Shown here one piece after another: positions 2,988 to 64,000 of a DNA stretch of 64,000 bases (its first letter is position 1; each line of letters starts with the position of its first letter). The notes beneath the pieces are model-generated. The model was not told where the DNA came from. It searched no databases and saw nothing but the letters and a program-made list of their open reading frames with translations. A program made the position numbers and the translations under genes. Source of the stretch: Gammaproteobacteria bacterium (GTDB taxonomy: Bacteria; Pseudomonadota; Gammaproteobacteria; Eutrophobiales; Eutrophobiaceae); contig OZ241853.1 of assembly GCA_965202685.1 (NCBI GenBank), forward strand, positions 2,585,622 through 2,649,621, read 5' to 3'.

Positions 2988-4220
2988 ATGAGCGACATCG
3001 ATTCCAAGCAACGCGGGGCAAAGGCTCCCGACGCAGAAAATGGGCGCCGCGGGTGGAACACCCTGGCCGTGCGGGCCGGCCAGCGGCGCACCGAACACGG
3101 CGAGAACAGCGAGCCGTTGTTTCTGACTTCCAGCTTCGTGTTCAAGAACGCGGCGCAGGCGGCGGCCCGGTTCGCTGGCGACGAGCCGGGCAACATCTAT
3201 TCGCGCTTCACCAATCCCACGGTGCGCGTCTTCGAGGAGCGCTTGGCGGCCCTGGAGGGGGCGGAGCGGGGGATCGCCACTTCCTCGGGCATGAGCGCCA
3301 TCCTGAGCGTCTGCCTGGGGTTGTTGAAAACCGGCGACCATATCGTCTCCTCTCGCAGCATTTTCGGCACCACCGTGAACCTCTTTGGCGCCATTTTGGC
3401 CCGGTTCGGCGTCAAGACCAGCTTCGTTCCTCTCAGCGACTACGGGGCCTGGAAGGCGGCGCTCACCCGCAAGACGCGCCTGCTGTTCCTGGAGACGCCC
3501 TCCAATCCCCTGATGGAGGTCGCCGACATTCAGCGTCTGGCGGAGCTGGCCCGCAAACGCGGTTGCCTGTTGGTGGTGGATAACTGCTTTTGCACGCCGG
3601 CCCTGCAACGGCCCTTGGAATTCGGCGCCGATCTGGTCATCCATTCGGCGACCAAATACCTGGATGGCCAAGGGCGTTGCGTCGGCGGGGCCGTGTTGGG
3701 CAGCGAGGCCCTGTTGGGGGAGGATGTGTTCGCCGTTTTGAAGAACGCCGGCCCCTCCATGAGCCCGTTTAACGCCTGGGTCTTTCTCAAGGGGCTGGAG
3801 ACTCTGAGTCTGAGGATGCGGGCCCATAGCCGCAACGCCGCCGTGCTGGCGGACTGGTTAGTGGGTCAGCCCCAGGTGAAAAAGGTGCATTATCCCGGCT
3901 TGGCCGGGCATCCTCAGCGCGAACTGGCGGCGAGGCAGCAGGAGGACTTCGGCGGCATCGTCAGTTTCGTGGTCAAGGGCGGGCGGCAAGCGGCTTGGCG
4001 GCTTATAGACCGCGTGAGTCTGTTCTCTATCACCGCCAACCTGGGGGACAGCAAAAGCACCATCACCCACCCCGCCACCACGACCCACGGCAAGCTGACG
4101 GCGGCGGAGCGAAAGAGCGCCGGCATCGTTCCCGGCCTAGTGCGCATTTCCGCGGGACACGAGGATGTCGCCGATCTCAAGCAGGATCTGAAATGGGCCT
4201 TGACAGGGGCGTCGAGTTAG
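2988..4220 (+). CDS. metZ: O-succinylhomoserine sulfhydrylase (PLP-dependent Cys/Met-metabolism enzyme)
   Basis: 410 aa. Close to MetZ sequences along the whole length (…LAVRAGQRRT…NPTVR.FEER.AALEGAE…SSGMSAIL…LVVDNCFCTPALQ.PL..GAD.VIHSATKY.DGQGR…). Preceded by SD gggggacagg. Confidence 0.85.
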   Translation: MSDIDSKQRGAKAPDAENGRRGWNTLAVRAGQRRTEHGENSEPLFLTSSFVFKNAAQAAARFAGDEPGNIYSRFTNPTVRVFEERLAALEGAERGIATSSGMSAILSVCLGLLKTGDHIVSSRSIFGTTVNLFGAILARFGVKTSFVPLSDYGAWKAALTRKTRLLFLETPSNPLMEVADIQRLAELARKRGCLLVVDNCFCTPALQRPLEFGADLVIHSATKYLDGQGRCVGGAVLGSEALLGEDVFAVLKNAGPSMSPFNAWVFLKGLETLSLRMRAHSRNAAVLADWLVGQPQVKKVHYPGLAGHPQRELAARQQEDFGGIVSFVVKGGRQAAWRLIDRVSLFSITANLGDSKSTITHPATTTHGKLTAAERKSAGIVPGLVRISAGHEDVADLKQDLKWALTGASS

Positions 4221-12553: not shown

Positions 12554-12650
12554 TGCAACCGCTTTGCCCCGTCCGTCTGTTGGCGCGGGGTTGGCGTGGC
12601 AAGTTGTTGATGCTTTTTTCATCTTGATTTTTTTGACCAGACCCGGGGCA

Positions 12651-13820
12651 ATGGGAAAGTTGCAAGAGTGCAAGGAAATGACTGAAATAGAAACGCTGGA
12701 GACAGTGGATTGGGACTTTGCGGATGCTTTGACGGGCACCTCGACAAACACAATACATCCCTATCCAGCTAAATTCATCCCGCAGATTCCAAATCGTTTC
12801 ATAAGGCGGTTTTCAAATGAGGGGGAAACGGTGTATGAACCGTTTTTGGGCAGTGGCACGACTGCTGTAGAGGCCAACATACTCGGAAGAAATTCCATTG
12901 GCAACGACGTGAATGAGCTGGCGGTGCTTATTTCCAAAGTCAAAACAACTCCTATTGCGAACAGAAAACTCGCCTCTCTTGACGGCTTGCTGAATAAAAT
13001 CTACAACCGGATAGATCAGTTGCATTCCAGCAGGGAAGATAAAATTGCAAGACCCAACATCGTCAACCTTGATCGATGGTTTGAAGATTTTGTGATCAAA
13101 GAGCTGGCGCTCACCAAAGAAGAAATTATGAAACTTGGCGACCAGGATCTGATTGATTTTTGCCTTGTGGCGTTTTCGGGGATCATCATTGCCGTTTCGA
13201 GACAAGACAGCGACACCCGATATGTGCGAGTTCCCAAGAACATCAAGCCATTGGATACTTTCGACAAGTTTTCAAAACAGTTGCGCAAATTGAGAAAAAT
13301 TATGCGGGAGTCGAGAGAGCTGATTAGCAAGGGCAAATCTGTCTTTAAAGTCGCCGACACGAGAATGGAAGATGTTTTTGCTGAAGACTCGGCTGATTTG
13401 GCTGTTACATCCCCTCCTTACCCTAATGCTTATGATTACCACCTGTATCATAAATACCGTCTCTTTTGGTTGGGAATGGATCCAGCGCGTTTGCGGCAAA
13501 GTGAAATTGGGGCGCATGCTGACTACTCAAAGAAAAACGGGGCGGATGAATTTGACTTTTTGAAGGACATGAAAAAGTGTTTTTTGAACACGAGCAAAAT
13601 CCTCAAGCCTGGCGCTTGTTTTGCTCTTGTCATTGGCGATTCAATTTTGAAAGGCAGGAACATTCGGAATAACGAAGTTCTGAAGCAAGCCGCTCAGATG
13701 ACGCCTTTCAGTTATGTTGCGGAGTTCACAAGGAATCTGAAGTTAAACAAGAAATCATTTAACCCGAAGATCGGCAATATAAAGACGGAAAAGATTGTGG
13801 TTTTTGAGAATCGGAAATGA
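12651..13820 (+). CDS. DNA amino-methyltransferase (SPPY motif; probable N4-cytosine or N6-adenine), family paralog A
   Basis: Motif order is HPYPAKFIPQ (motif-X-like), then SNEGETVYEPFLGSGTTAVEA (motif I), about 190 aa, then VTSPPYPNAYDY (motif IV). The start could be ATG 12651 or ATG 12678; the ORF-track start at 12564 is unlikely. Confidence 0.7.
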   Translation: MGKLQECKEMTEIETLETVDWDFADALTGTSTNTIHPYPAKFIPQIPNRFIRRFSNEGETVYEPFLGSGTTAVEANILGRNSIGNDVNELAVLISKVKTTPIANRKLASLDGLLNKIYNRIDQLHSSREDKIARPNIVNLDRWFEDFVIKELALTKEEIMKLGDQDLIDFCLVAFSGIIIAVSRQDSDTRYVRVPKNIKPLDTFDKFSKQLRKLRKIMRESRELISKGKSVFKVADTRMEDVFAEDSADLAVTSPPYPNAYDYHLYHKYRLFWLGMDPARLRQSEIGAHADYSKKNGADEFDFLKDMKKCFLNTSKILKPGACFALVIGDSILKGRNIRNNEVLKQAAQMTPFSYVAEFTRNLKLNKKSFNPKIGNIKTEKIVVFENRK

Positions 13821-13823
13821 GCC

Positions 13824-15395
13824 ATGTATAGGTACCTGGCCAATTTTTCAAGATACAAGCTTCGGGATTACGAGAAGCAACTTGCGATAGGGGAATTCGA
13901 GAATCAATTTCCTTCCGTGAAGGAAAAATCAGTCACCGACCAGGGAATATCATTTACGACAAGCCGGCGTCTTAACGCCTCCAAACTTGAAAAGTTGGCT
14001 TTTTACAGCGAGATTCGTTTTCAAAATATGAGATCGGAACAATCAAGCATCCTGACAGACCAGGCGATTATCGAGAGTTTCCAAAAGTCTTCTCCTGATT
14101 TGTTTGAGTCCATTCATCCTGCTAAATCCCGGGAAATTCGCTATTTGACGCATTCGTTTCACGAGTATAAAGGCAGGTTTTATCCGCAACTTGCGAAAGC
14201 GTTTATGAATTACGCCGGTCTCAAAAGAGGCGACACTATTTTAGATCCGTTCTGCGGTAGCGGAACGACATTAGTTGAAAGCTTGCTGTTTGGCGCAAAC
14301 GCCATCGGCATTGACATAAACCCAATAGCTTATCTTTTGGCCAAGGCAAAGGTGCAAAGCCTTTTATTGAAAGAAAAAGAGCTGGGGGTTGTTCGAGAAA
14401 CTTTTGCAGACTCCAAGTTCGGTTCAGACTGGAAAAAGATTCGATTAGAGAGTTGCGACAGCGCTTTGGATGTGGAATACTTGAAAAACTGGTTTCCTGA
14501 AAAAAACCTGAAAAAAATCATTTTCATTCAACAGACCATAGGGCGTTTGCCGAATGAAACAACCCGACTCTTTGCAAAAGTGATTCTTAGCAACCTGTTG
14601 CGAAAGTTTTCCTATCAAGAGCCAAATCAGCTGAGAATGAGAAGGCGGCTGGATGCGCCGCCGCAGAATCTGATTGAAACATTTAAGAAAAATCTTGTTG
14701 ATCAGATTGAAAACCTGGAAAAATTTCGTTTGTTAAATCGTTTTGATCTTACTTCCCAAGTTGAGAATCATTTAGGTGATGTCAGAACATTGATGAAAAG
14801 CGCCGGGCTGAGAAGTCGCTCGGTTGATGCCGTCATTACTTCGCCGCCTTATGCGACCGCGTTGCCTTATGTCGATACTGACAGGCTTTCATTGTTTGTT
14901 TTCGGCTTCACCAGGAAGGGCAATTTCCGGGAATTGGAACGAACCTTAATTGGCAATCGCGAGATTGCCAAGTCAGAGAGGGTGCAACTGGATAAAGAAC
15001 TTGAGAGCAACTTCGCCCAGTCTGTCTTGCCTAAAAAAATCACTCGGCTACTGAGAAAAATTTACCTGCTCAATAAAAATTCAGATGTCGGCTTCAGGCG
15101 CAAGAACACGGCGGCATTGCTCTACAAGTACTTTTCGGACATGCAACTGAGCCTCAACCAGGTTTCCAAGATCCTGAAGCAAAACAAACTGGCTTTTTTT
15201 GTCGTGGGCAACAACAGAACCACAGCAGGCGGCGAAAATGTCCACATTCCGACGGGCGATTTTATCAGCTTGATTGCGCAAGAAAATGGTTTAAGGCTTG
15301 TTGAGAAAATCAACATGACCGTTCAACAGCCTTATATGATTCATTCTAAAAATTCCATTAGTAAGGAATCCATTTTGGTCTTGCAGAGGAAATGA
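13824..15395 (+). CDS. DNA amino-methyltransferase (SPPY motif), family paralog B
   Basis: HEYKGRFYPQL …ILDPFCGSGTTLVESLLFGANAIGIDIN… VITSPPYATALPY. Same architecture as the upstream gene. Start lies 4 bp after the stop of paralog A. Confidence 0.7.
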   Translation: MYRYLANFSRYKLRDYEKQLAIGEFENQFPSVKEKSVTDQGISFTTSRRLNASKLEKLAFYSEIRFQNMRSEQSSILTDQAIIESFQKSSPDLFESIHPAKSREIRYLTHSFHEYKGRFYPQLAKAFMNYAGLKRGDTILDPFCGSGTTLVESLLFGANAIGIDINPIAYLLAKAKVQSLLLKEKELGVVRETFADSKFGSDWKKIRLESCDSALDVEYLKNWFPEKNLKKIIFIQQTIGRLPNETTRLFAKVILSNLLRKFSYQEPNQLRMRRRLDAPPQNLIETFKKNLVDQIENLEKFRLLNRFDLTSQVENHLGDVRTLMKSAGLRSRSVDAVITSPPYATALPYVDTDRLSLFVFGFTRKGNFRELERTLIGNREIAKSERVQLDKELESNFAQSVLPKKITRLLRKIYLLNKNSDVGFRRKNTAALLYKYFSDMQLSLNQVSKILKQNKLAFFVVGNNRTTAGGENVHIPTGDFISLIAQENGLRLVEKINMTVQQPYMIHSKNSISKESILVLQRK

Positions 15396-15396
15396 C

Positions 15397-16488
15397 ATGA
15401 AACTCACACTTTTGACGCATGAAAATCCGGTAGGCGAAGAAATCGCTAAGGCTCTGAAAAACGGAAGGTATTCCAATTTCAAAGCGGCTGTCGCTTATGT
15501 GCGAAATTCGGGCCTAAGCAGGATCCACAGCGAACTGGCTGATTTTGCCGGGAACGGAGGCAAAGCATCCATAATCGCAGGCATAGATCAAGGCAATACT
15601 TCATATCAGGCTTTAGTCAATCTGAAAACTTTTGCCAAGGACAACTTGTTTATCCACCACGATAGAAATTTTGATATTACATTCCATCCCAAGATTTACC
15701 TGTTTGGCAACAGCCAGGTTGAAAAGGTGATACTGGGATCGTCCAATTTTACCGCTGGTGGTTTTTATTTGAATTACGAAGCAAATATCAGCGTTAAGCT
15801 TGGAAGTTCGGAAAAAGCAAAACGCTTTCGCCGGCAGATTTCGGATTATTGGAGCGATTTGCTGAATGACAAGAATACGAAAAGGTGCGCTCCGGCATTG
15901 CTCAACAAACTTTTGGAAAACGGTTCCATAGCCGATGAGCGCGCGCAAAAACCGTTCAAGGAAATCATTGAGAAAATGTCAACCGGTTCCCCTTTCAAAG
16001 CCAGGGAATTAAGGACAGCGCCGCCTGCTGTGGAGTTGCGAACGGAAGTTCCAGCGTTAAGAGGGAAATTTGCAATGACGCTTTCGAGCTTTGATGTAAG
16101 CGAGAGGAGCCTGGACCCTGTTCTGCTGATCCCTATTGCCGCGTTGAGGACGAGGCCGGGATTCTGGAATTTCCCTGCCTTTTACACTTATTCGGAAACA
16201 GGCTATCCTCAGCTGTATGCGGTTGCAGAAGTCCGGATGGATGGCAAGGCGCTGAAAGATCAACATATCCGGATGTATTACTACGAGAAAAAAAGCGAGT
16301 TCCGTTTGAAGTGCGAAGCCATTAAGCGGGCCGGTGATGAAGGGGACATCATTGTAATTAGAAAGTATCCCACCAGGCCCTTGGAGTTTGAAATTGAGCT
16401 TTTAAGGCGGAATTCCATAGAACATGAAGAGATTAGACCTCTTCTTGCTCAGAGAGCAAGTTCGCGGAAATTTTTCGCTTATTTGTGA
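15397..16488 (+). CDS. phospholipase-D-family nuclease with a single HKD motif; candidate BfiI/NgoFVII-type restriction endonuclease
   Basis: Single HxK…GSxN motif (HPKIYLFGNSQVEKVILGSSNFT) in the N-terminal half. C-terminal half of about 170 aa is plausibly a DNA-recognition domain. 363 aa, close to BfiI (358 aa) and similar to Nuc. Starts 2 bp after the stop of methyltransferase B. Confidence 0.6.
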   Translation: MKLTLLTHENPVGEEIAKALKNGRYSNFKAAVAYVRNSGLSRIHSELADFAGNGGKASIIAGIDQGNTSYQALVNLKTFAKDNLFIHHDRNFDITFHPKIYLFGNSQVEKVILGSSNFTAGGFYLNYEANISVKLGSSEKAKRFRRQISDYWSDLLNDKNTKRCAPALLNKLLENGSIADERAQKPFKEIIEKMSTGSPFKARELRTAPPAVELRTEVPALRGKFAMTLSSFDVSERSLDPVLLIPIAALRTRPGFWNFPAFYTYSETGYPQLYAVAEVRMDGKALKDQHIRMYYYEKKSEFRLKCEAIKRAGDEGDIIVIRKYPTRPLEFEIELLRRNSIEHEEIRPLLAQRASSRKFFAYL

Positions 16489-27204: not shown

Positions 27205-27999
27205 TTAGCCACTCTTCTTTCTCTCAATAACGCTTCTTATCCTCTTTTTAGCGAAGGTTGCGTACTTCTTGTCTTTCTCAATGCCTAACCACTTTCTGTT
27301 TAATGTTTCGGCAACGACGGCGGTTGTTCCGCTTCCTAAAAATGGATCAAGAACAATGTCGCCTTCGTTTGAACTTGTCAAAATAATTCTTTTGAGTATT
27401 TCTTCTGGTTTTTGCGTGGGGTGCAATGCGCGTCCACTTTTGTTGCGCAGTCTCTCTTTTCCTTGAACAAGTGGCAATTCCCAAAGATCGCGCATTTGTT
27501 TTGGACTCCCATCCTTCTTTCTATGGGGATTTATTTCTTTTGTTTTTTCATAATTGAAAATCCAGCCGCTTCCTTTTACCGCCCAAACAACAAACTCAGT
27601 TGAGTGTGTATAAACTCGTTTTGTCATATTAGGCATTGCGTTTGTTTTATACCAAGTGATAACATTGTTAATTTTGAAACTGAACTGTTTTAATGTTACC
27701 AGCACTTCGCCGATGTTGTGATAGCTGCATGAAATGTAAATTGCTCCACCATTTTTCAACACCCTGAAGCAAGAGCCGATCCATTCTTTTGTAAATTCCA
27801 TGTATTCTGAGGAGGTCATTTTATCCCAGGCCTCGTCTATCATGTGCCAGTCGCCTCCAGTTTTATTTCCCTCCCATTTTAAGTGATTTCCGGACAGATT
27901 GTAGGGCGGATCAGCAAAAATCAAAGCAACAGTTTCTTCATCGAACTGTTTGTTCAGTATTGAAATGCAGTCACCATTGTAAATAACATTTGTTTTCAT
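27205..27999 (-). CDS. beta-class DNA N6-adenine (or N4-cytosine) methyltransferase
   Basis: Motif order is DPPY (ALIFADPPYNL), then HPTQKP, then DPFLGSGTTAV, the beta-class permutation. Start taken at MKTNVIYNGDC (27999). Confidence 0.8.
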   Translation of the reverse strand: MKTNVIYNGDCISILNKQFDEETVALIFADPPYNLSGNHLKWEGNKTGGDWHMIDEAWDKMTSSEYMEFTKEWIGSCFRVLKNGGAIYISCSYHNIGEVLVTLKQFSFKINNVITWYKTNAMPNMTKRVYTHSTEFVVWAVKGSGWIFNYEKTKEINPHRKKDGSPKQMRDLWELPLVQGKERLRNKSGRALHPTQKPEEILKRIILTSSNEGDIVLDPFLGSGTTAVVAETLNRKWLGIEKDKKYATFAKKRIRSVIERKKSG

Positions 28000-28007
28000 G
28001 TTTATAC

Positions 28008-29825
28008 TCAGGAAAGGATGCTTTCCCGCCATGAAGAAATAGTTTCCGGAATGCTTTGCAGCCATTCAATGGAGTTGTTGAAAGAATTGGTGGCATTCAA
28101 TATTTTGTCGTACAAAAGCGAGAGTTGCGTGTGTCTTAAGAACCGCAGTTCTGCTTTCATCTGAAGAAGAGTTTCCAAAATCAATATGAAATGGCTAATT
28201 GATAACGGGATGATTTTCTGAGGACTCCCCTCAAATTCGTATTTTATCGCCGCCCAAAAAGTGTTTACGGTATCCCTGTGCAGTGATGGGGCAATGAATA
28301 GACAATATGATGGCTTGCTGGGATGCTTTTTTTCAAAATCTCTTAAATGCCTCATCACTGGTTGTCCTTCGTTGTACCACTGCTCGCGGTTTCTGAGCAT
28401 TGTAACTTCGCAAATTGCATTGAAGCTATCATAAAAGCACTCAATATCTGGAGTGTTTGCAGGAGCGGTGAAAGTTGGTTCATTATCATCGCCGACAGGA
28501 TAACTGGGTTGTATTCTAAGCGCATCGTTAAGCGCTTGCAAACTCAGTGCAGACAATTTTTCAAGCAATATAGAACGGTCATCATGCTCAAAGATAGTTT
28601 TAAGCTTATGAATGCAGTTTTCAATTTGCTCTTTTGTTTGGGAACTCTCGTAATCCAGATCATTTTGTAGCGACCTCCTGTATTCTCGCAATTCAGCGAT
28701 ATAGATTCTTAACTCGTCATTTTGCATTTTTCGGTAGTTTTCCAGGGCAATGTTCTCTTTCCTCAAAGAAGCTTCATGTTCGCGCACTTCTTGAACAAGC
28801 CGTTCTATAATTTCAATGTGCTTTTCTGAGGTTTCCCAAGGAAGATAAGGCTGGGAAATGTCTGACACATATTCAAGATAAGCTTTTTTTGAGACAAAGG
28901 ATTTAGCTTTTGCACTGTCATAAGCTAATAGAGCATTGATTTCAATTGACCTGCTTGGTTCTAAATCAATATAAAAGCCACCGCCACGGATGCGTATATA
29001 TCGAGTCAAGCGAAAATAACGAATTGCGTTATCGCCGTAGTCTTGCAAATTGTTCAGGAGGCTGCTTATCTTGTTTTTGTCATTAGATTCTAAAAACCCA
29101 ATGGCAAATTGCCATTTGTAATTTTCAAAGCATTCCCTTCGTTCCTTCTGTGGCTTGCTTATTAGTTCTTCTCTTAAAGCGATAATTCTCTCCGCATAAT
29201 CATTTATGTTTTTATGATGAATCAAAGTGGGAACGAAAAGGGAAAATTCCTGTTTGCTAATGCCTTTAGGTTTGTTGCCGCGAGAAATGTCTTTTTGATT
29301 CACCTTATTGATCAGATGAAGTGCGCCAATGAAGGGCTTAATATCGTAATTTCCGTCTTCAGGATAATCACGGCTATCGGGGTTTGGTATTTGCCATTTC
29401 AAGAAACTTCTGAAAAACACTTCTCCAATATCAAAGTCATCTTTCATAAAAAGCTTCCCTAGGTCAGTGATGAATATCCTATTGTTTTTGATAGCGACGA
29501 GCCCTATTTTTTTGAGGGGGTTTATTGACTGTCTTCCGCGCATTGGCGGATCTTCATAATTTTTGATGTTGAAAATCTCTTCCGCTTGAGCAAAAGATAT
29601 TTCTCTTGATAGATCATCAATCAAGCTAACTGATTCTCGGGGAAGCCCATTATAGAACTGGGGACTTCCATATCCATATTTTCTATTTTGGATAAGTAAA
29701 GTTTGAAAAGCTTTTTGGCTTTCTGAATTCCATTCCGAATTTTCGAGTTGACGAAGGATTATCAAAAAATCCCTCAGCCTTTCAGGATTTCGCAACGTTG
29801 TGGTGATTGACCAAGGTTTTTTCAT
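28008..29825 (-). CDS. candidate type IIS restriction (or nicking) endonuclease, AlwI/N.BstNBI/PleI/MlyI-like family
   Basis: 605 aa. Recalled segments of N.BstNBI line up: FLKWQIPNP…YPE…IKPF…LHLINKV, IRYFRLTRYIR.RG, and YCLFIAPSL…IIPLSISHF. N-terminal W…RNPERL…L…E..W pattern. Flanked by two methyltransferases. Identification is from memory, not from alignment. Confidence 0.5.
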   Translation of the reverse strand: MKKPWSITTTLRNPERLRDFLIILRQLENSEWNSESQKAFQTLLIQNRKYGYGSPQFYNGLPRESVSLIDDLSREISFAQAEEIFNIKNYEDPPMRGRQSINPLKKIGLVAIKNNRIFITDLGKLFMKDDFDIGEVFFRSFLKWQIPNPDSRDYPEDGNYDIKPFIGALHLINKVNQKDISRGNKPKGISKQEFSLFVPTLIHHKNINDYAERIIALREELISKPQKERRECFENYKWQFAIGFLESNDKNKISSLLNNLQDYGDNAIRYFRLTRYIRIRGGGFYIDLEPSRSIEINALLAYDSAKAKSFVSKKAYLEYVSDISQPYLPWETSEKHIEIIERLVQEVREHEASLRKENIALENYRKMQNDELRIYIAELREYRRSLQNDLDYESSQTKEQIENCIHKLKTIFEHDDRSILLEKLSALSLQALNDALRIQPSYPVGDDNEPTFTAPANTPDIECFYDSFNAICEVTMLRNREQWYNEGQPVMRHLRDFEKKHPSKPSYCLFIAPSLHRDTVNTFWAAIKYEFEGSPQKIIPLSISHFILILETLLQMKAELRFLRHTQLSLLYDKILNATNSFNNSIEWLQSIPETISSWRESILS

Positions 29826-30976
29826 GGCCGTTCAACATGGCAATAGAAAATCCGTTCCGCATTGCTCTCGCTGGCGCTTTTTCCTGTTGTAAAGGCCTTG
29901 TAATTTTTTTCAAATATCTCAACGTTGCCTCTGCCACTCAGAATTCGCACGATTTCGTTATCGCTTATTCTTGCGTTTGAGCGCCCGTCTTTTGAATTGC
30001 CTGTGTTGTTGTAAGAAAGTAAAATATGCCTGCATTGCGCGTTTCCAATCAAGTCTGAAAGCGCGCGTTTTGCGCTTTTGAGACAATAATTGCTTTTTAT
30101 ATGCGAGCGGTTCATTTTTTTGCCTACGCCGACTACTTCGGGTTTTTTCCATTCTGCGACATTTTCCAGAAGATGATACGCATCTGAGTACTGGCGCGAG
30201 TTGTAGGGCGGGTCAATGTATAGAACATCACAAGAGATTCTTTTGATTAGCGCGTTTGCGTCTTCTTTGTGGATTTCATTGTTTTCGTTATTCGCGTAGT
30301 CAATAGCGGGAATTAAAAGCCGGACAGGTTGGATCGTGTCTAATTTCCTCCGAAAAGCATCGTAATGGCCAACGGTATTGGCAACCTTGTCCGTTGCGTA
30401 AAGCAAGGAACAAATCAGGATGTTCTTTTCATCTTCGCCATTTGCAATTTCGTTAATCTCCTCGCGCATTGCCCCGATCTTTTTTGCATTCGCTTCTGTG
30501 AAATAGGTCCCGCCAAAGTGTTCTGAGAAATAATTTTCTTGACTGCTCTCCAAAGCATTGAGATAGCCGATTTTTTGAATTAAGCTTTTTTGCAGGTCGC
30601 GACGAACCCCTAAAAAGGCTTTCAGGCAGGCGTAATTCGCAAAAAGCAAATCATTGGAGATGATTTTAATGGCTTGGTTGTTAAACCTTTCTCCGACAAC
30701 GCCAGTTCCAGCAAAGATGTCGCAAAAGGAATTTATGGGGCCGCACTTTTCTGACACCACATCCTCGATGAAACCTAGCAATTTGCGCTTGTTGCCCAGG
30801 TACCGTCTGTTATGGAGGCGAAAGCGCCCACTACTTAGGCATTCTTGTGGCGGGAAGCGATGCCCGTTGATTCTCTGCGCGCTGATTTCAGGCCCGGATT
30901 CTTCTCCGTATAAATCGAGCTGAGTCGTATGCAGGTTGTTTTCCACGCGGTCAGAGTTTTGGTTCTGTTCTGTCAT
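29822..30976 (-). CDS. D12-class (Dam-like, alpha) DNA N6-adenine methyltransferase
   Basis: RYLGNKRKLL (the Dam WAGGK-type motif), FCDIFAGTGVVG (motif I), VLYIDPPYN (motif IV), and HILLSYNN (the Dam SNSD-type motif). Stop overlaps the endonuclease start. Confidence 0.75.
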   Translation of the reverse strand: MTEQNQNSDRVENNLHTTQLDLYGEESGPEISAQRINGHRFPPQECLSSGRFRLHNRRYLGNKRKLLGFIEDVVSEKCGPINSFCDIFAGTGVVGERFNNQAIKIISNDLLFANYACLKAFLGVRRDLQKSLIQKIGYLNALESSQENYFSEHFGGTYFTEANAKKIGAMREEINEIANGEDEKNILICSLLYATDKVANTVGHYDAFRRKLDTIQPVRLLIPAIDYANNENNEIHKEDANALIKRISCDVLYIDPPYNSRQYSDAYHLLENVAEWKKPEVVGVGKKMNRSHIKSNYCLKSAKRALSDLIGNAQCRHILLSYNNTGNSKDGRSNARISDNEIVRILSGRGNVEIFEKNYKAFTTGKSASESNAERIFYCHVERP

Positions 30977-31045: not shown

Positions 31046-31352
31046 TCCGGCGGCCCGGCGGCGGTTGAGGCGGACCTGGCGGGAGGTGGAGAGTGAGGCT
31101 GGAGAACCGGGCTCGCAACGCAGGGCAGGTCCGGCGGCGGTTGAGGCGGACCTGGCGGGAGGCGGGGAGTGAGGCTGGAGAACCGGGCTCGCAGCGCAGA
31201 GCAGGTCCGGCGGCGGTTGAGGCGGACCTAGCAGGAGGCGGGGAGTGAGGCTGGAGAACCGGTGCCCGCGGCGCGGGGCGGGCCCGACGGCAGTTGAGGC
31301 GGCCCGGCGGGAGATGGGGCGTGAGGCTGGAGAACCGGGCCCGCGGCGCGGG
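31046..31352. repeat. tandem direct repeat, about 76 bp x 4 (GC-rich, each unit with an internal hairpin)
   Basis: GTTGAGG anchors recur at 31064, 31140, 31216 and 31293 (period 76, 76, 77). Units 2 and 3 contain the inverted repeat caggtccg…cggacctg. Units differ by a few substitutions and the fourth is more diverged. Confidence 0.8.
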
Positions 31353-31562
31353 GCAACCCCGGCGACGGGCGCACCGGTGGCGGCGGGGTAGTCGGGCCGG
31401 AAAAATAACACAGGCCCCCCGATTTTTCTCACTTTTGCCCAATATGTTGTAAAATAGACCATGGTAAACGCCGTTGGTTGTGGTTTCCCGCGCCCGGAAG
31501 CGGGGGGAGGCCCCCGAAATCTCGAATCGTTGCTCCCGGCTGAATTTTTGAGTGAAAAACCC

Positions 31563-31608: not shown

Positions 31609-31693
31609 GGAGGGGTACCCAAGCGGTCAACGGGGGCAGACTGTAAATCTGCTGGCAATGCCTTCGTAGGTTCGAATCCTACCCCCTCCACCA
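31609..31693 (+). tRNA. tRNA-Tyr (anticodon GUA)
   Basis: 85 nt with a long variable arm. Acceptor stem GGAGGGG / CCCCUCC, discriminator A, CCA. Anticodon loop cuGUAaa. Close to E. coli tRNA-Tyr. Confidence 0.9.
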
Positions 31694-31745
31694 TGGCGCG
31701 GGGGCGGAATGCGGCGGCGCGGGGCAGGTGGCGAAATGCGAGGCG

Positions 31746-31819
31746 GCGGGTGTAGTTCAATGGTAGAATCTCAGCCTTCCAAGCTGATGGCGTGGGTTCG
31801 ATTCCCATCACCCGCTCCA
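31746..31819 (+). tRNA. tRNA-Gly (anticodon UCC)
   Basis: 74 nt. Acceptor stem GCGGGUG / CACCCGC, TΨC arm GGTTCGATTCC, anticodon loop cuUCCaa, 3' CCA. Confidence 0.85.
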
Positions 31820-31854
31820 GATGGCGGGCCGGGCCGCCGGGAGTGATGACCAGC

Positions 31855-31930
31855 GCCCATATAGCTCAGTCGGTAGAGCGCTTTCTTGGTAAGGAAGAGG
31901 TCACCGGTTCAAATCCGGTTATGGGCTCCA
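31855..31930 (+). tRNA. tRNA-Thr (anticodon GGU)
   Basis: 76 nt. Acceptor stem GCCCAUA / UAUGGGC. Anticodon stem cuuuc / ggaag with loop uuGGUaa. 3' CCA. Confidence 0.85.
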
Positions 31931-31990
31931 GTGGCGTAGATAGAGTTTTTTGAGAAACCGATTGTAACCAACACTTGAGGAGAATATCTC

Positions 31991-33181
<1,191 letters not shown>

Positions 33182-33208
33182 TCATTTCCGATTGACGAGT
33201 TTATTTCA

Positions 33209-33284
33209 AGGCCAGTAGCTCAATTGGCAGAGCGGCGGTCTCCAAAACCGCAGGTTGGGGGTTCGATTCCCTCCTGGCCTGCCA
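33209..33284 (+). tRNA. tRNA-Trp (anticodon CCA)
   Basis: 76 nt. Acceptor stem AGGCCAG / CUGGCCU, discriminator G, CCA. Anticodon loop cuCCAaa. The tuf / tRNA-Trp / secE order is the conserved one. Confidence 0.85.
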
Positions 33285-61647: not shown

Positions 61648-62394
61648 ATGAAAAAGATAAACCGACAAGAAGTGCTAAAGTATGTTGAAGAAAACATCGC
61701 AACTTTTCATCAGCAACGCATTGATAGTCTTAATAACTTGAAGTTATTGGAAGTCATCGCAAGGAAGAATCCCTATCTTCTCAAAGCGAAATACTTGCTG
61801 ACTACTGGCGAGATTGTAAGCGGTTTAACAGATGCGCATATTTCTTCAAATGAAGAGACCATTTTTAACAACTGGCTGAAAGGTTTAGCTATTTTTGTCA
61901 ATAGTAAAGTTTATGGCGGGTATAAGTCGGGCATTACAGGCATTGATCTCGAATTTAACAAAGATGGAATAAGATACATTGTAACGATTAAATCAGGGCC
62001 CAATTGGGGCAACGCTTCACAAATAGCTAAAATGATTGAGGATTTTAAAACAGCTAAGCTAGCACTGAGAACAAGCAATTCAAAGCTAAACATAACTGCT
62101 ATCAATGGTTGCTGTTACGGGAGAAACAATAAAACGGACAAAGGGGAGTATTACAAGTATTGTGGTCAACGCTTTTGGGAATTCATATCCGGCGACAGCG
62201 AGTTATTTACTGAAATTATTGACCCACTTGGATATAAAGCCAAAGAAAAGAATGATGTCTTCATGGCATCGTATTCGCAGATGATAAATCGGTTCATCAA
62301 AGCGTTTGCAGACACATATTGCAAAGACAATGGAGAAATTGACTGGAAAAAACTGGTCATATTCAACTCTGCAATAGAAAGGCCCCCTAAGTAG
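61648..62394 (+). CDS. hypothetical protein; candidate type II restriction endonuclease partner of the adjacent methyltransferase
   Basis: 248 aa, AT-rich, convergent with the methyltransferase. Possible acidic/Lys cluster GIDLEFNKDG…VTIKSG, but no catalytic motif confidently recognised. Confidence 0.3.
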   Translation: MKKINRQEVLKYVEENIATFHQQRIDSLNNLKLLEVIARKNPYLLKAKYLLTTGEIVSGLTDAHISSNEETIFNNWLKGLAIFVNSKVYGGYKSGITGIDLEFNKDGIRYIVTIKSGPNWGNASQIAKMIEDFKTAKLALRTSNSKLNITAINGCCYGRNNKTDKGEYYKYCGQRFWEFISGDSELFTEIIDPLGYKAKEKNDVFMASYSQMINRFIKAFADTYCKDNGEIDWKKLVIFNSAIERPPK

Positions 62395-62407: not shown

Positions 62408-63988
62408 TTATTTTTCCTTTAGGTGGAAGATGGTTTCAGCATAGGCGTTGGATCTGTCCTTTTCAACCCGGTTCAGCACCGGGCGTTTGAAGCGGTTGAC
62501 AATCTCCATGCTGGCTAACTCGGCGATCTCGGGGTAAAGGTCGTATTTGTCATTCGCCACTAACAAGACATCGTAGTCTTCCCTGAGGCACCTTTTGCAG
62601 TTTTTCAAGACCTCCGCTATGCCCTGGGTGTAAGAATCTCGCGCTGTTTTTCCCTGGCCTTTGCACAAAGGCCCCACTTCCAATTCATCAGCCCGCGCTA
62701 AGCCAAACATCTCATAGGCGTAGGCATGTTGCTCGTGATAATCGATTAAACCCACATAGGGCGGGCTTGAAAAGATCCCTTTGATTTTTTGCCTTGTCAG
62801 CGTTTCCGGGAAACCGGCTTTTTTCGCCGCCTCAACAATATCGATACTCCTGCTGTCGCCTTGCAGGCAAATCTGAAAAGTCTCGGTTCGCAACTTCTTG
62901 AATTCGCCCAGCCGGTTCAGGGTGTCCACGGCGTATCTCTTCCACCAGCCGGCAATGGAAAACACTGGCCTGCACAGCTTGCCGTGCTTTTTGCAGTAGT
63001 AAGCGGAGGAGACAGGTTCCTTCAGGGTCCCTAAATCCGCATGCGTGGTCGCCCGGCAAGAGCGAGCCGTCCTGCTGAGAATAACGGCGAGCATCTTTCT
63101 GAGGCCTTGATCATCGAGCCGTTCGAATTCCTGAAGCATGAAGTCTATTTCTTCCCTGACAGGAGACAAAAACCATTTGTCTAAAAAGCTGTCATTTTTA
63201 TCCTGTCTGATCCTGATTTTGCATTGCTCCGCCAAGGCAAAATAAACAGGTAAAAACTCTGCTTCTTTCTCTTTTGCGTATTCCATTTCCTCGATGAGCC
63301 CCTGGTTGATCTTTCTCTTGTACTCAGGCGATGGAAAATGTTTGGCGTTAAATTCCGCCAATGCCGCCGAGAGGCGTTCCTCAAAGGTCCCATTGTTTCT
63401 GTCAGCCTGAAAAGCCTCCAACTTTATCGTCAATTCCCGAGCCGCCTCAGCGACTCGGTCGAGATCATGATCTTGAACCTTGACATTAGCGATCATGCTG
63501 TTGAACAGGGACACATCTACGCTAATGGCGTGGAGGCCTAGCTCGTTGGCCTGAACCAAGGTCGTCCCGCTGCCGCAAAATGGCTCTAAAACAACGTCGC
63601 CCTGCTGGAAGAACGCCTCTCGTTTGAATTCGTCCGTGCGCTGGTCCAAAAAGTACTCCGCCAGTTGCGGGATGAATTTCCCCTTGTAGGGGTGCAGCCT
63701 GTGTACATGTTTTGTTCTTTCCTTCTCCTGACACTCCGCAAAAGACAGACGCCAGTTAAGATCGTCGCCTAAGGTTTCCTTCCACTCTTTTTCCTTGTTG
63801 AAGGAATCGTAGTAGGACTGCAACTCTTCCCGGTCAACCAGGGCGTTGCCGCGCTTGCCGTGTTTCTTAAGCTTGCCGTATTGAAGAAGATAGGAAATGT
63901 TGGAAGAGGAGATGTTGCGCCTGGTGTGCCGGGAGGCCCACTCCGCCGCTTGCCTCAGGTCGATGAGCGAGCCTTTTTCCTCAAACAA
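62408..63988 (-). CDS. DNA amino-methyltransferase (SPPY motif), family paralog C
   Basis: HRLHPYKGKFIPQL …VVLEPFCGSGTTLVQANELGLHAISVDV… IFSSPPYVGLIDY. Same permuted architecture as the island-1 methyltransferases. 526 aa. Confidence 0.7.
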   Translation of the reverse strand: MFEEKGSLIDLRQAAEWASRHTRRNISSSNISYLLQYGKLKKHGKRGNALVDREELQSYYDSFNKEKEWKETLGDDLNWRLSFAECQEKERTKHVHRLHPYKGKFIPQLAEYFLDQRTDEFKREAFFQQGDVVLEPFCGSGTTLVQANELGLHAISVDVSLFNSMIANVKVQDHDLDRVAEAARELTIKLEAFQADRNNGTFEERLSAALAEFNAKHFPSPEYKRKINQGLIEEMEYAKEKEAEFLPVYFALAEQCKIRIRQDKNDSFLDKWFLSPVREEIDFMLQEFERLDDQGLRKMLAVILSRTARSCRATTHADLGTLKEPVSSAYYCKKHGKLCRPVFSIAGWWKRYAVDTLNRLGEFKKLRTETFQICLQGDSRSIDIVEAAKKAGFPETLTRQKIKGIFSSPPYVGLIDYHEQHAYAYEMFGLARADELEVGPLCKGQGKTARDSYTQGIAEVLKNCKRCLREDYDVLLVANDKYDLYPEIAELASMEIVNRFKRPVLNRVEKDRSNAYAETIFHLKEK

Positions 63989-64000
63989 GCTCTGCTGGAC

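Follow-up and report, generated by a model that had tools for sequence, protein, structure and literature searches.

Three methyltransferase genes with a beta-like AdoMet module ahead of SPPY probably encode DNA methyltransferases of the known alpha (class D) order

When three paralogous genes carry an S-adenosylmethionine (AdoMet) module resembling that of beta-class DNA methyltransferases, placed N-terminal to an SPPY motif, do they represent a new permuted class of enzyme or a kind that is already known? The question is raised by a 64,000-nucleotide stretch of DNA (the window) from a Gammaproteobacteria bacterium of the Eutrophobiaceae (GenBank assembly GCA_965202685.1, contig OZ241853.1, positions 2,585,622 to 2,649,621 of the forward strand), in which an earlier sequence-only reading had described a methyltransferase family that looked circularly permuted and that it did not recognise. 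The three proteins, here termed A, B and C, are assigned, with a probability of about 0.85, to the alpha-group (class D) exocyclic-amino DNA methyltransferases of two restriction-modification systems of Type II that were gained by horizontal transfer. This arrangement is ordinary, well populated and already described, such that the observation is correct yet not new.

Methyltransferase A (12651..13820, + strand, 389 aa) was identified as an alpha-order amino-methyltransferase from its open reading frame, a PF01555 match, an AlphaFold model and PADLOC. Its motif X element, HPYPAKFIPQ, begins at residue 36 (12756-12785), motif I, EPFLGSGT, at residue 63 (12837-12860), and SPPY at residue 254 (13410-13421), with a helical insert that is a putative target recognition domain (TRD; residues ~100-225, 12948-13325) between the last two. 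Methyltransferase B (13824..15395, + strand, 523 aa) belongs to the same family and carries HEYKGRFYPQ at residue 113 (14160-14189), DPFCGSGT at residue 141 (14244-14267) and SPPY at residue 340 (14841-14852), in addition to an extra N-terminal alpha/beta domain (residues 1-90, 13824-14093) and a long helical insert past motif IV. Methyltransferase C (62408..64000, - strand, at least 526 aa), likewise of this family, has HPYKGKFIPQ at residue 99 (63694-63665), EPFCGSGT at residue 135 (63586-63563) and SPPY at residue 408 (62767-62756), and its 5′ end lies beyond the window edge. As the frame of C is open from 63988 to base 64000, the last of the window, and its homologues are ~534 aa in length, the listed TTG start at 63988 is an artefact and the real start is placed outside the window. 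An in-frame TTG at 12564 offers an alternative start for A, though homologues of 380-389 aa favour 12651.

The order common to A, B and C is H-x-Y-x3-(K/R)-(F/Y)-x-P-Q, followed by the (D/E)PFxGSGT AdoMet loop and then SPPY, as the sequence-only reading had proposed for the three reading frames. Its more specific first element, HPYxxKFxPQ, is present in A and C and fails for B, which has HEY. The spacing of motif I to motif IV (191, 199 and 273 aa in A, B and C, respectively) agrees with the ‘about 190-270 aa’ that had been read off, and that of motif X to motif I (27, 28 and 36 aa from start to start; 17-26 aa from end to start) is close to the suggested ‘about 20 aa’. Judged by sequence, the three proteins are homologous well past the motifs alone, from motif X through SPPY, with 26% identity across 258 aa between A and B (E 8e-20) and two significant segments each for B and C (E 1e-17 and 3e-8) and for A and C (E 7e-15 and 7e-6). 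An alignment of the three subfamilies contains 23 invariant columns, including, in A numbering, H36, Y38, P44, Q45, P64, F65, G67, G69, T70, D86 and K98 in the N-terminal part and W143, F144, D236, R238, S254-P-P-Y257, Y263, G287 and E380 in the rest; the invariant W-F pair sits in the middle region and the DxR precedes motif IV.

Three groups of these enzymes have been defined by motif order, in which alpha is X-I-II-III-TRD-IV-VIII and beta is IV-VIII-TRD-X-I-II-III, with gamma also defined, and the alpha and beta orders are circular permutations of each other by definition (PMC2890505). In A, B and C, motifs X, I and II come first, followed by the putative TRD and then by the catalytic part, which is the linear order of the alpha group and the reverse of the beta-group order, where motif IV precedes the TRD and X-I. 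In a 2025 preprint (Samokhina & Alexeevski, bioRxiv 10.1101/2023.12.13.571470), class D (equivalent to alpha) has the topology Hd1-S5-Hd2-S6-Hd3-TRD-S7-... and is distinguished from class E by a distance of >150 aa, as opposed to <100 aa, between the SAM and catalytic motifs. The spacings of A, B and C all exceed 150 aa, and amongst 143 diverse representatives of the family the distance ranges over 178-547 aa (median, 199).

The chain was followed in AlphaFold models of A and B, which drew on alignments of 53 and 55 homologues, respectively (A: predicted local distance difference test [pLDDT] 90.6, predicted template modelling score [pTM] 0.90; B: pLDDT 89.6, pTM 0.91). The AdoMet half of the A model consists of a helix at residues 45-54 (motif X), a strand at 60-63 (beta1, motif I), a helix at 70-77, a strand at 81-86 (beta2, ending ahead of D86) and a helix at 89-99, and it is followed by an all-helical insert (104-225), a strand at 230-234 (beta3) and a strand at 248-253 (beta4), with SPPY directly after at 254-257. 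The B model repeats this order (strand 159-164, helix 167-179, helices 184-303, strand 313-317, strand 334-339, and SPPY) and differs in that it carries the N-terminal alpha/beta domain (1-90), its insert is longer, and a further helical segment is inserted past motif IV; in both models beta5-7 and the remaining helices of the catalytic half lie past SPPY. The N-terminal domain of B, which is confidently predicted as beta-alpha-beta-beta-alpha-beta-beta-alpha, is not in A and has no Pfam THUMP match. In both models a TRD-like insert falls between Hd3 (alphaB) and S7 (beta3), as in class D, and the predicted connectivity of A and B is that of the alpha group. The order X-I-(insert)-IV given by the sequence-only reading is thereby upheld by motif positions and models alike, and the models place SPPY at the expected site of motif IV, which supports a catalytic role for it, a role on which that reading had depended.

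The proposed architecture would run from the motif X helix to beta1 with its (D/E)PFxGSGT AdoMet loop, then to beta2, whose acidic residue (D86 in A) would bind the ribose. Between alphaB and beta3 stands the presumed TRD, an insert of about 120-200 aa that is mostly helical and carries the family-invariant W-F, and beta3 and beta4 would lead into the catalytic SPPY loop and the remaining catalytic half. Alpha-group enzymes share with A, B and C the motif order X-I-II-(TRD)-III/IV-VIII, the insert between alphaB and beta3, the (D/S)PPY loop after beta4, the single-chain Type II form and a pair of non-colinear beta-profile matches.

PF01555 (N6_N4_Mtase) is the sole Pfam family whose cut-off (26.7 bits) is passed by all three proteins (A, 68.5; B, 59.4; C, 48.4 bits), and the match is non-colinear, in that profile positions ~100-218 of 221, towards its C-terminal end, fall on the N-terminal portion of each protein (A: residues 21-94), in keeping with the earlier description of an alpha order built from beta-like sequence. 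A search of NCBIfam gave partial matches under threshold only. A profile search of the PDB with the family of A returned the beta-class TTHA0409 first (2zie, E 2.7e-13), followed by two ‘DNA cytosine-N4 methyltransferase’ entries and then by M.PvuII (1boo) and M.MboIIA (1g60), with 8s9n ranking between 2zie and 1boo. The alignment of A with 2zie is in reversed order, as residues 26-90 of A match 207-268 of the chain, 223-259 match 15-52 with SPPY on SPPY, and 301-338 match 70-107, and, taken together with the predicted fold, it bears out the suggested circular permutation relative to beta-class enzymes. In sequence terms, both the AdoMet module and the region around SPPY fall within the PF01555 lineage, the best-known members of which follow the beta order (IV...TRD...X-I).

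The window itself offers a comparator of each order. A beta-class methyltransferase (27205..28065, - strand, 286 aa; DPPY at residue 52, HPTQKP at 215, DPFLGSGT at 240) is matched by PF01555 (E 2.5e-59) over 1-221 of 221 in a single colinear stretch; it is the enzyme that the sequence-only reading had set beside A, and the motif I segments of the two are indeed identical at 16 of 21 positions, with the HPTQKP motif present as claimed. The X-I module is 36% identical to that of this enzyme across 73 aa (E 5e-10), and in hhalign residues 21-102 of the family profile align to its residues 195-279 with 97% probability (E 8e-11), while motif IV aligns weakly in the permuted place (224-257 to 20-55, E 0.003). 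An alpha-class D12/Dam-like methyltransferase (29822..30976, - strand, 384 aa; FAGTG at residue 88, DPPY at 255) has a colinear match to PF02086 (E 1.3e-33). A, B and C score below the cut-off of 22 bits for PF02086 (MethyltransfD12; 21.0, 17.7 and 18.3 bits), although some homologues carry a precomputed PF02086 match, and the in-window D12 enzyme was not matched significantly from the family, with a profile alignment at 7% probability only. The three proteins are accordingly not ordinary Dam/EcoRV-like enzymes devoid of a special tie to the beta-class X and I motifs. In this they differ from the solved class D structures that the preprint lists (EcoDam, T4Dam, DpnM and M.CbeI), which are D12/Dam-like with DPPY, whereas all three proteins of the window resemble PF01555 and have SPPY. 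No enzymes come nearer in sequence than the beta-class PF01555 members (TTHA0409, M.PvuII, M.MboIIA and the in-window enzyme), with which the SPPY/DPPY region can be aligned too, yet their order is IV...TRD...X-I and that of A, B and C is X-I...insert...IV. M.MvaI and M.BcnIB are N4-cytosine methyltransferases of alpha order in which DPFxGSGT stands ahead of TSPPY (reportedly Klimasauskas et al. 1989; Vilkaitis et al. 2002), and they share both signature motifs and their order with A, B and C.

That A, B and C might constitute a previously unrecognised permuted class, apart from alpha, beta and gamma, was considered in light of the lack of a colinear Pfam model (PF01555 in two pieces, PF02086 under its cut-off) and of any solved structure with the X-I...IV order matched by sequence in PDB sequence and profile searches. 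However, X-I-II-insert-III-IV is both the definition of alpha (PMC2890505) and the topology of class D, class D enzymes are often found as two separate, non-colinear beta-type profile matches, and a single profile group picks up classes B, D and E with (D/S/H)PP(Y/F) motifs (bioRxiv 10.1101/2023.12.13.571470). Furthermore, curated, REBASE-derived hidden Markov models of Type II methyltransferases in PADLOC (MTase_II) match at full length and in colinear fashion, with PDLC03364 on A (residues 14-385, profile 14-377 of 380, E 2e-65), PDLC03377 on B (6-522, profile 5-503 of 504, E 5e-69) and PDLC03249 on C (8-525, profile 15-540 of 541, E 1e-214). When clusters of 50% identity are each counted by one representative, a profile of the three subfamilies recovered 3,331 of them at E ≤ 1e-30, a number that rises to 12,960 at E ≤ 1e-10, and existing annotations name thousands of homologues as methyltransferases of DNA or of N4-cytosine. 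Homologues of C (~534 aa), which are 65-74% identical to it, are spread over many phyla of bacteria and archaea. The alpha-group amino-methyltransferases are reportedly the subject of Malone, Blumenthal & Cheng (1995), Vilkaitis et al. (2002) announce circular permutation among N4-cytosine methyltransferases in their title, and Klimasauskas et al. (1989) are said to have defined the DPF-GSGT / TSPPY pair on M.MvaI, M.Cfr9I and M.PvuII, with M.MvaI in alpha order. A new class is rejected as extremely improbable, as the topology is that of class D/alpha, and the unusualness implied by the sequence-only reading does not hold for an arrangement long defined, with thousands of members and full-length PADLOC models. 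The reading as permuted beta enzymes reflects the known alpha/beta relationship.

Both sets of genes are accompanied by a nuclease. A phospholipase D (PLD)-family nuclease (15397..16488, + strand, 363 aa; PLDc_2 E 7e-9) starts 2 bases past the end of B and is the putative restriction enzyme of the A+B cassette. It possesses a single HKD-type motif (H97-x-K99 from 15685; GSSN at 15736-15747) and its PLD matches, including that to the N-terminal PLD domain of RE_NgoFVII (E 1e-4), are N-terminal. Convergent with C is an EcoO109I-family Type II restriction endonuclease (61648..62394, + strand, 248 aa), which is matched by PF14511 over 2-198 of 198 (E 7.7e-86). With the PLD nuclease beside B and the EcoO109I-family nuclease beside C, each system has an adjacent endonuclease, and the two would be cognate to their neighbouring methyltransferases. 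Two further genomes, Candidatus Spongiihabitans (L001) and a metagenome-assembled genome (L003), contain the A-B-PLD cassette with equal gene lengths; in L003 the start of the A homologue is overlapped by the gene of a 157-aa helix-turn-helix (HTH_3) protein (3531-4004) that may be a controller, and none is found upstream of A in the window. In Atribacteria-type contigs (L004-L006, 4001-6380), a C homologue with 67% identity adjoins a PF09520-family endonuclease (tool label HinfI) and not an EcoO109I-family one, so that a conserved methyltransferase is paired with unrelated nucleases across genomes.

Amongst the 143 best new representatives of the family, 59 are two-domain proteins of >700 aa, and those checked are fusions of A and B in either order. 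Many relatives are fusions of 830-977 aa, amongst them P0235, P0361 and P0362 (A-B order) and P0378 (B-A order). Such fusions fit a pair of enzymes with one strand of an asymmetric site allotted to each, an arrangement seen in Type IIS systems. The BfiI system of Sapranauskas et al. (2000) is said to combine a PLD-family Type IIS nuclease with two N4-cytosine methyltransferases, one per strand. The A-B-PLD cassette is similar in having two methyltransferases and a ~360-aa nuclease with an N-terminal single-HKD PLD domain, and fusion of A and B elsewhere, in either order, is as expected where each enzyme serves one strand. The architecture of the BfiI nuclease is taken from PMC4267654, and the nuclease of the window differs in that it matches BfiI (2c1l) weakly (E 0.043) and in the PLD domain only. 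In the proposed BfiI-like Type IIS layout, A would methylate one strand of an asymmetric site and B the other, which would shield the site from the PLD nuclease, and C would shield the site cut by the adjoining EcoO109I-family nuclease.

The genes lie in two of three islands (~12.5-16.5 kb, 27.2-31.0 kb and from 61.6 kb onwards to the window end), for which the GC content is 43-46% (~39-46% in their cores) compared to ~62% in the backbone. The stretch has gained at least three restriction-modification systems by horizontal transfer, one per low-GC island.

Several findings weigh against the alpha-group reading or parts of it. The catalytic half is weak in sequence against beta enzymes (3.3 and 2.4 bits with 2zie; hhalign E 0.003-0.01), such that the argument for permutation rests mainly on the strong X-I match, the position of SPPY and the predicted fold. 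The term ‘BfiI-like’ refers to architecture only, and the C-terminal ~190 aa of the PLD nuclease are without a domain assignment. M.CbeI has DPPY yet produces N4-methylcytosine (m4C), which makes motif IV an unreliable predictor of the modified base (PMC3425538). Lastly, B passes the cut-off of PF01170/UPF0020 (52.7 vs 22.3 bits) and its best fold matches are transfer RNA (tRNA) N2-methylguanosine (m2G) methyltransferases.

This last point raises the possibility that B makes m2G in RNA, as an enzyme of the Trm11/Trm14/RlmL type, and that the rest of the family may do so too. B also matches TIGR01177 (E 1.9e-16), archaeal Trm11 is the top Foldseek match for both models (A, E 5e-7; B, E 6e-9 with a target-normalised TM-score of 0.57), and the source annotation of some B homologues reads ‘tRNA G10 N-methylase Trm11’ or ‘TRM11 family’. 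Foldseek is a sequential search, and its top 50 included Trm11, generic Rossmann methyltransferases and E. coli Dam, with no beta-class DNA methyltransferase; the absence of enzymes that match best in sequence is as a permutation predicts. The Trm11/Trm14/RlmL enzymes (PF01170) share the colinear X, I, IV order with A, B and C and are the best sequential fold matches, but they act on RNA and, as UPF0020 enzymes, are not known to be encoded in restriction-modification cassettes or to carry a large insert between motifs II and III, where the present family has one of 170 aa (an insert of 170-270 aa in all). The PF01170 and TIGR01177 matches span ~50 residues of the X-I module only (B: PF01170 profile 9-64 of 197), with A and C under the cut-off, while the Type II methyltransferase model spans residues 6-522 of B and SPPY is invariant in the family. 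B moreover sits in a low-GC island, within a conserved cassette between A and the PLD nuclease, and is fused to A elsewhere in either order. The RNA methyltransferase reading was rejected in view of the gene neighbourhood, the fusions and the Type II models that match at full length, and it is judged highly unlikely.

A further proposal, which is also unlikely, is that the SPPY / H-x-Y...P-Q clade is an evolutionary bridge from Trm11-type RNA m2G methyltransferases to beta-class DNA methyltransferases. It draws on the ancestral colinear order, the beta-like AdoMet module, the N-terminal alpha/beta domain of B and its whole-length Trm11 best fold match, and on the internal ‘IV-VIII, linker, X-I-II’ segment of the A-B and B-A fusions, which would be a duplication intermediate for a beta-order enzyme. 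If true, the clade would offer present-day examples of the successive stages by which duplication and truncation lead to circular permutation.

Returning to the reading of A, B and C as alpha-group DNA methyltransferases, the base that they modify is probably (roughly two in three) m4C, as suggested by the invariant SPPY, present in 175 of 175 motif I-to-IV pairs amongst the 143 diverse representatives, and by the N4-cytosine enzymes amongst the top profile matches. The JGI labels of many homologues are cytosine-N4-specific, and source labels in general include ‘site-specific DNA-methyltransferase (cytosine-N4-specific)’ and ‘DNA methyltransferase’, with some homologues labelled ‘DNA adenine methylase’ or ‘Trm11’; the latter two labels are unreliable. 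Sites of the EcoO109I type are G/C-rich, which counts against modification of adenine. Production of N6-methyladenine by enzymes of the same alpha class, which is possible though clearly the less favoured outcome, would be compatible with the caveat raised by M.CbeI, with the ‘DNA adenine methylase’ annotations and with several of the closest solved sequence matches (MboIIA, DpnA, RsrI and CcrM), which are adenine enzymes. Against this stand the best profile matches, namely 2zie (which has SPPY), the two ‘DNA cytosine-N4 methyltransferase’ entries and M.PvuII, as well as SPP(Y/F) being a hallmark of N4-cytosine enzymes (PMC3425538).

The second low-GC island holds a further system, in which an AlwI-family restriction endonuclease (28008..29825, - strand; PF09491 RE_AlwI, E 2.8e-81) is flanked by the two comparator methyltransferases, the beta-class PF01555 enzyme and the alpha-class D12 enzyme, both with DPPY. 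It is a Type IIS-style system with one enzyme of each permutation class. Beside it lie a 76-bp unit in four tandem copies (31055-31355, 89% matches) and a tRNA cluster of Tyr, Gly and Thr, then Trp (31609-33284), with a GC skew of 0.43 at 32-33 kb, and together the tandem repeat, the tRNA cluster and the high-skew stretch may mark the integration hot spot of this island. Within the 64-kb window, counts of candidate recognition sites (GGNCC, RGGNCCY, GGWCC, GANTC, GGATC, GAGTC, ACTGGG, GCSGC and others) gave observed/expected ratios of 0.72-1.08, with no clear signal of site avoidance, and these ratios point to no particular recognition site.

Overall, the split, order-reversed PF01555 match corresponds to the known alpha/beta permutation and not to a new fold. 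Its significance beyond annotation is small, as the three genes can be labelled as alpha-order, PF01555-lineage Type II DNA methyltransferases that probably produce m4C. Should the host ever be transformed, the restriction-modification systems found here and their methylation motifs would act as barriers.

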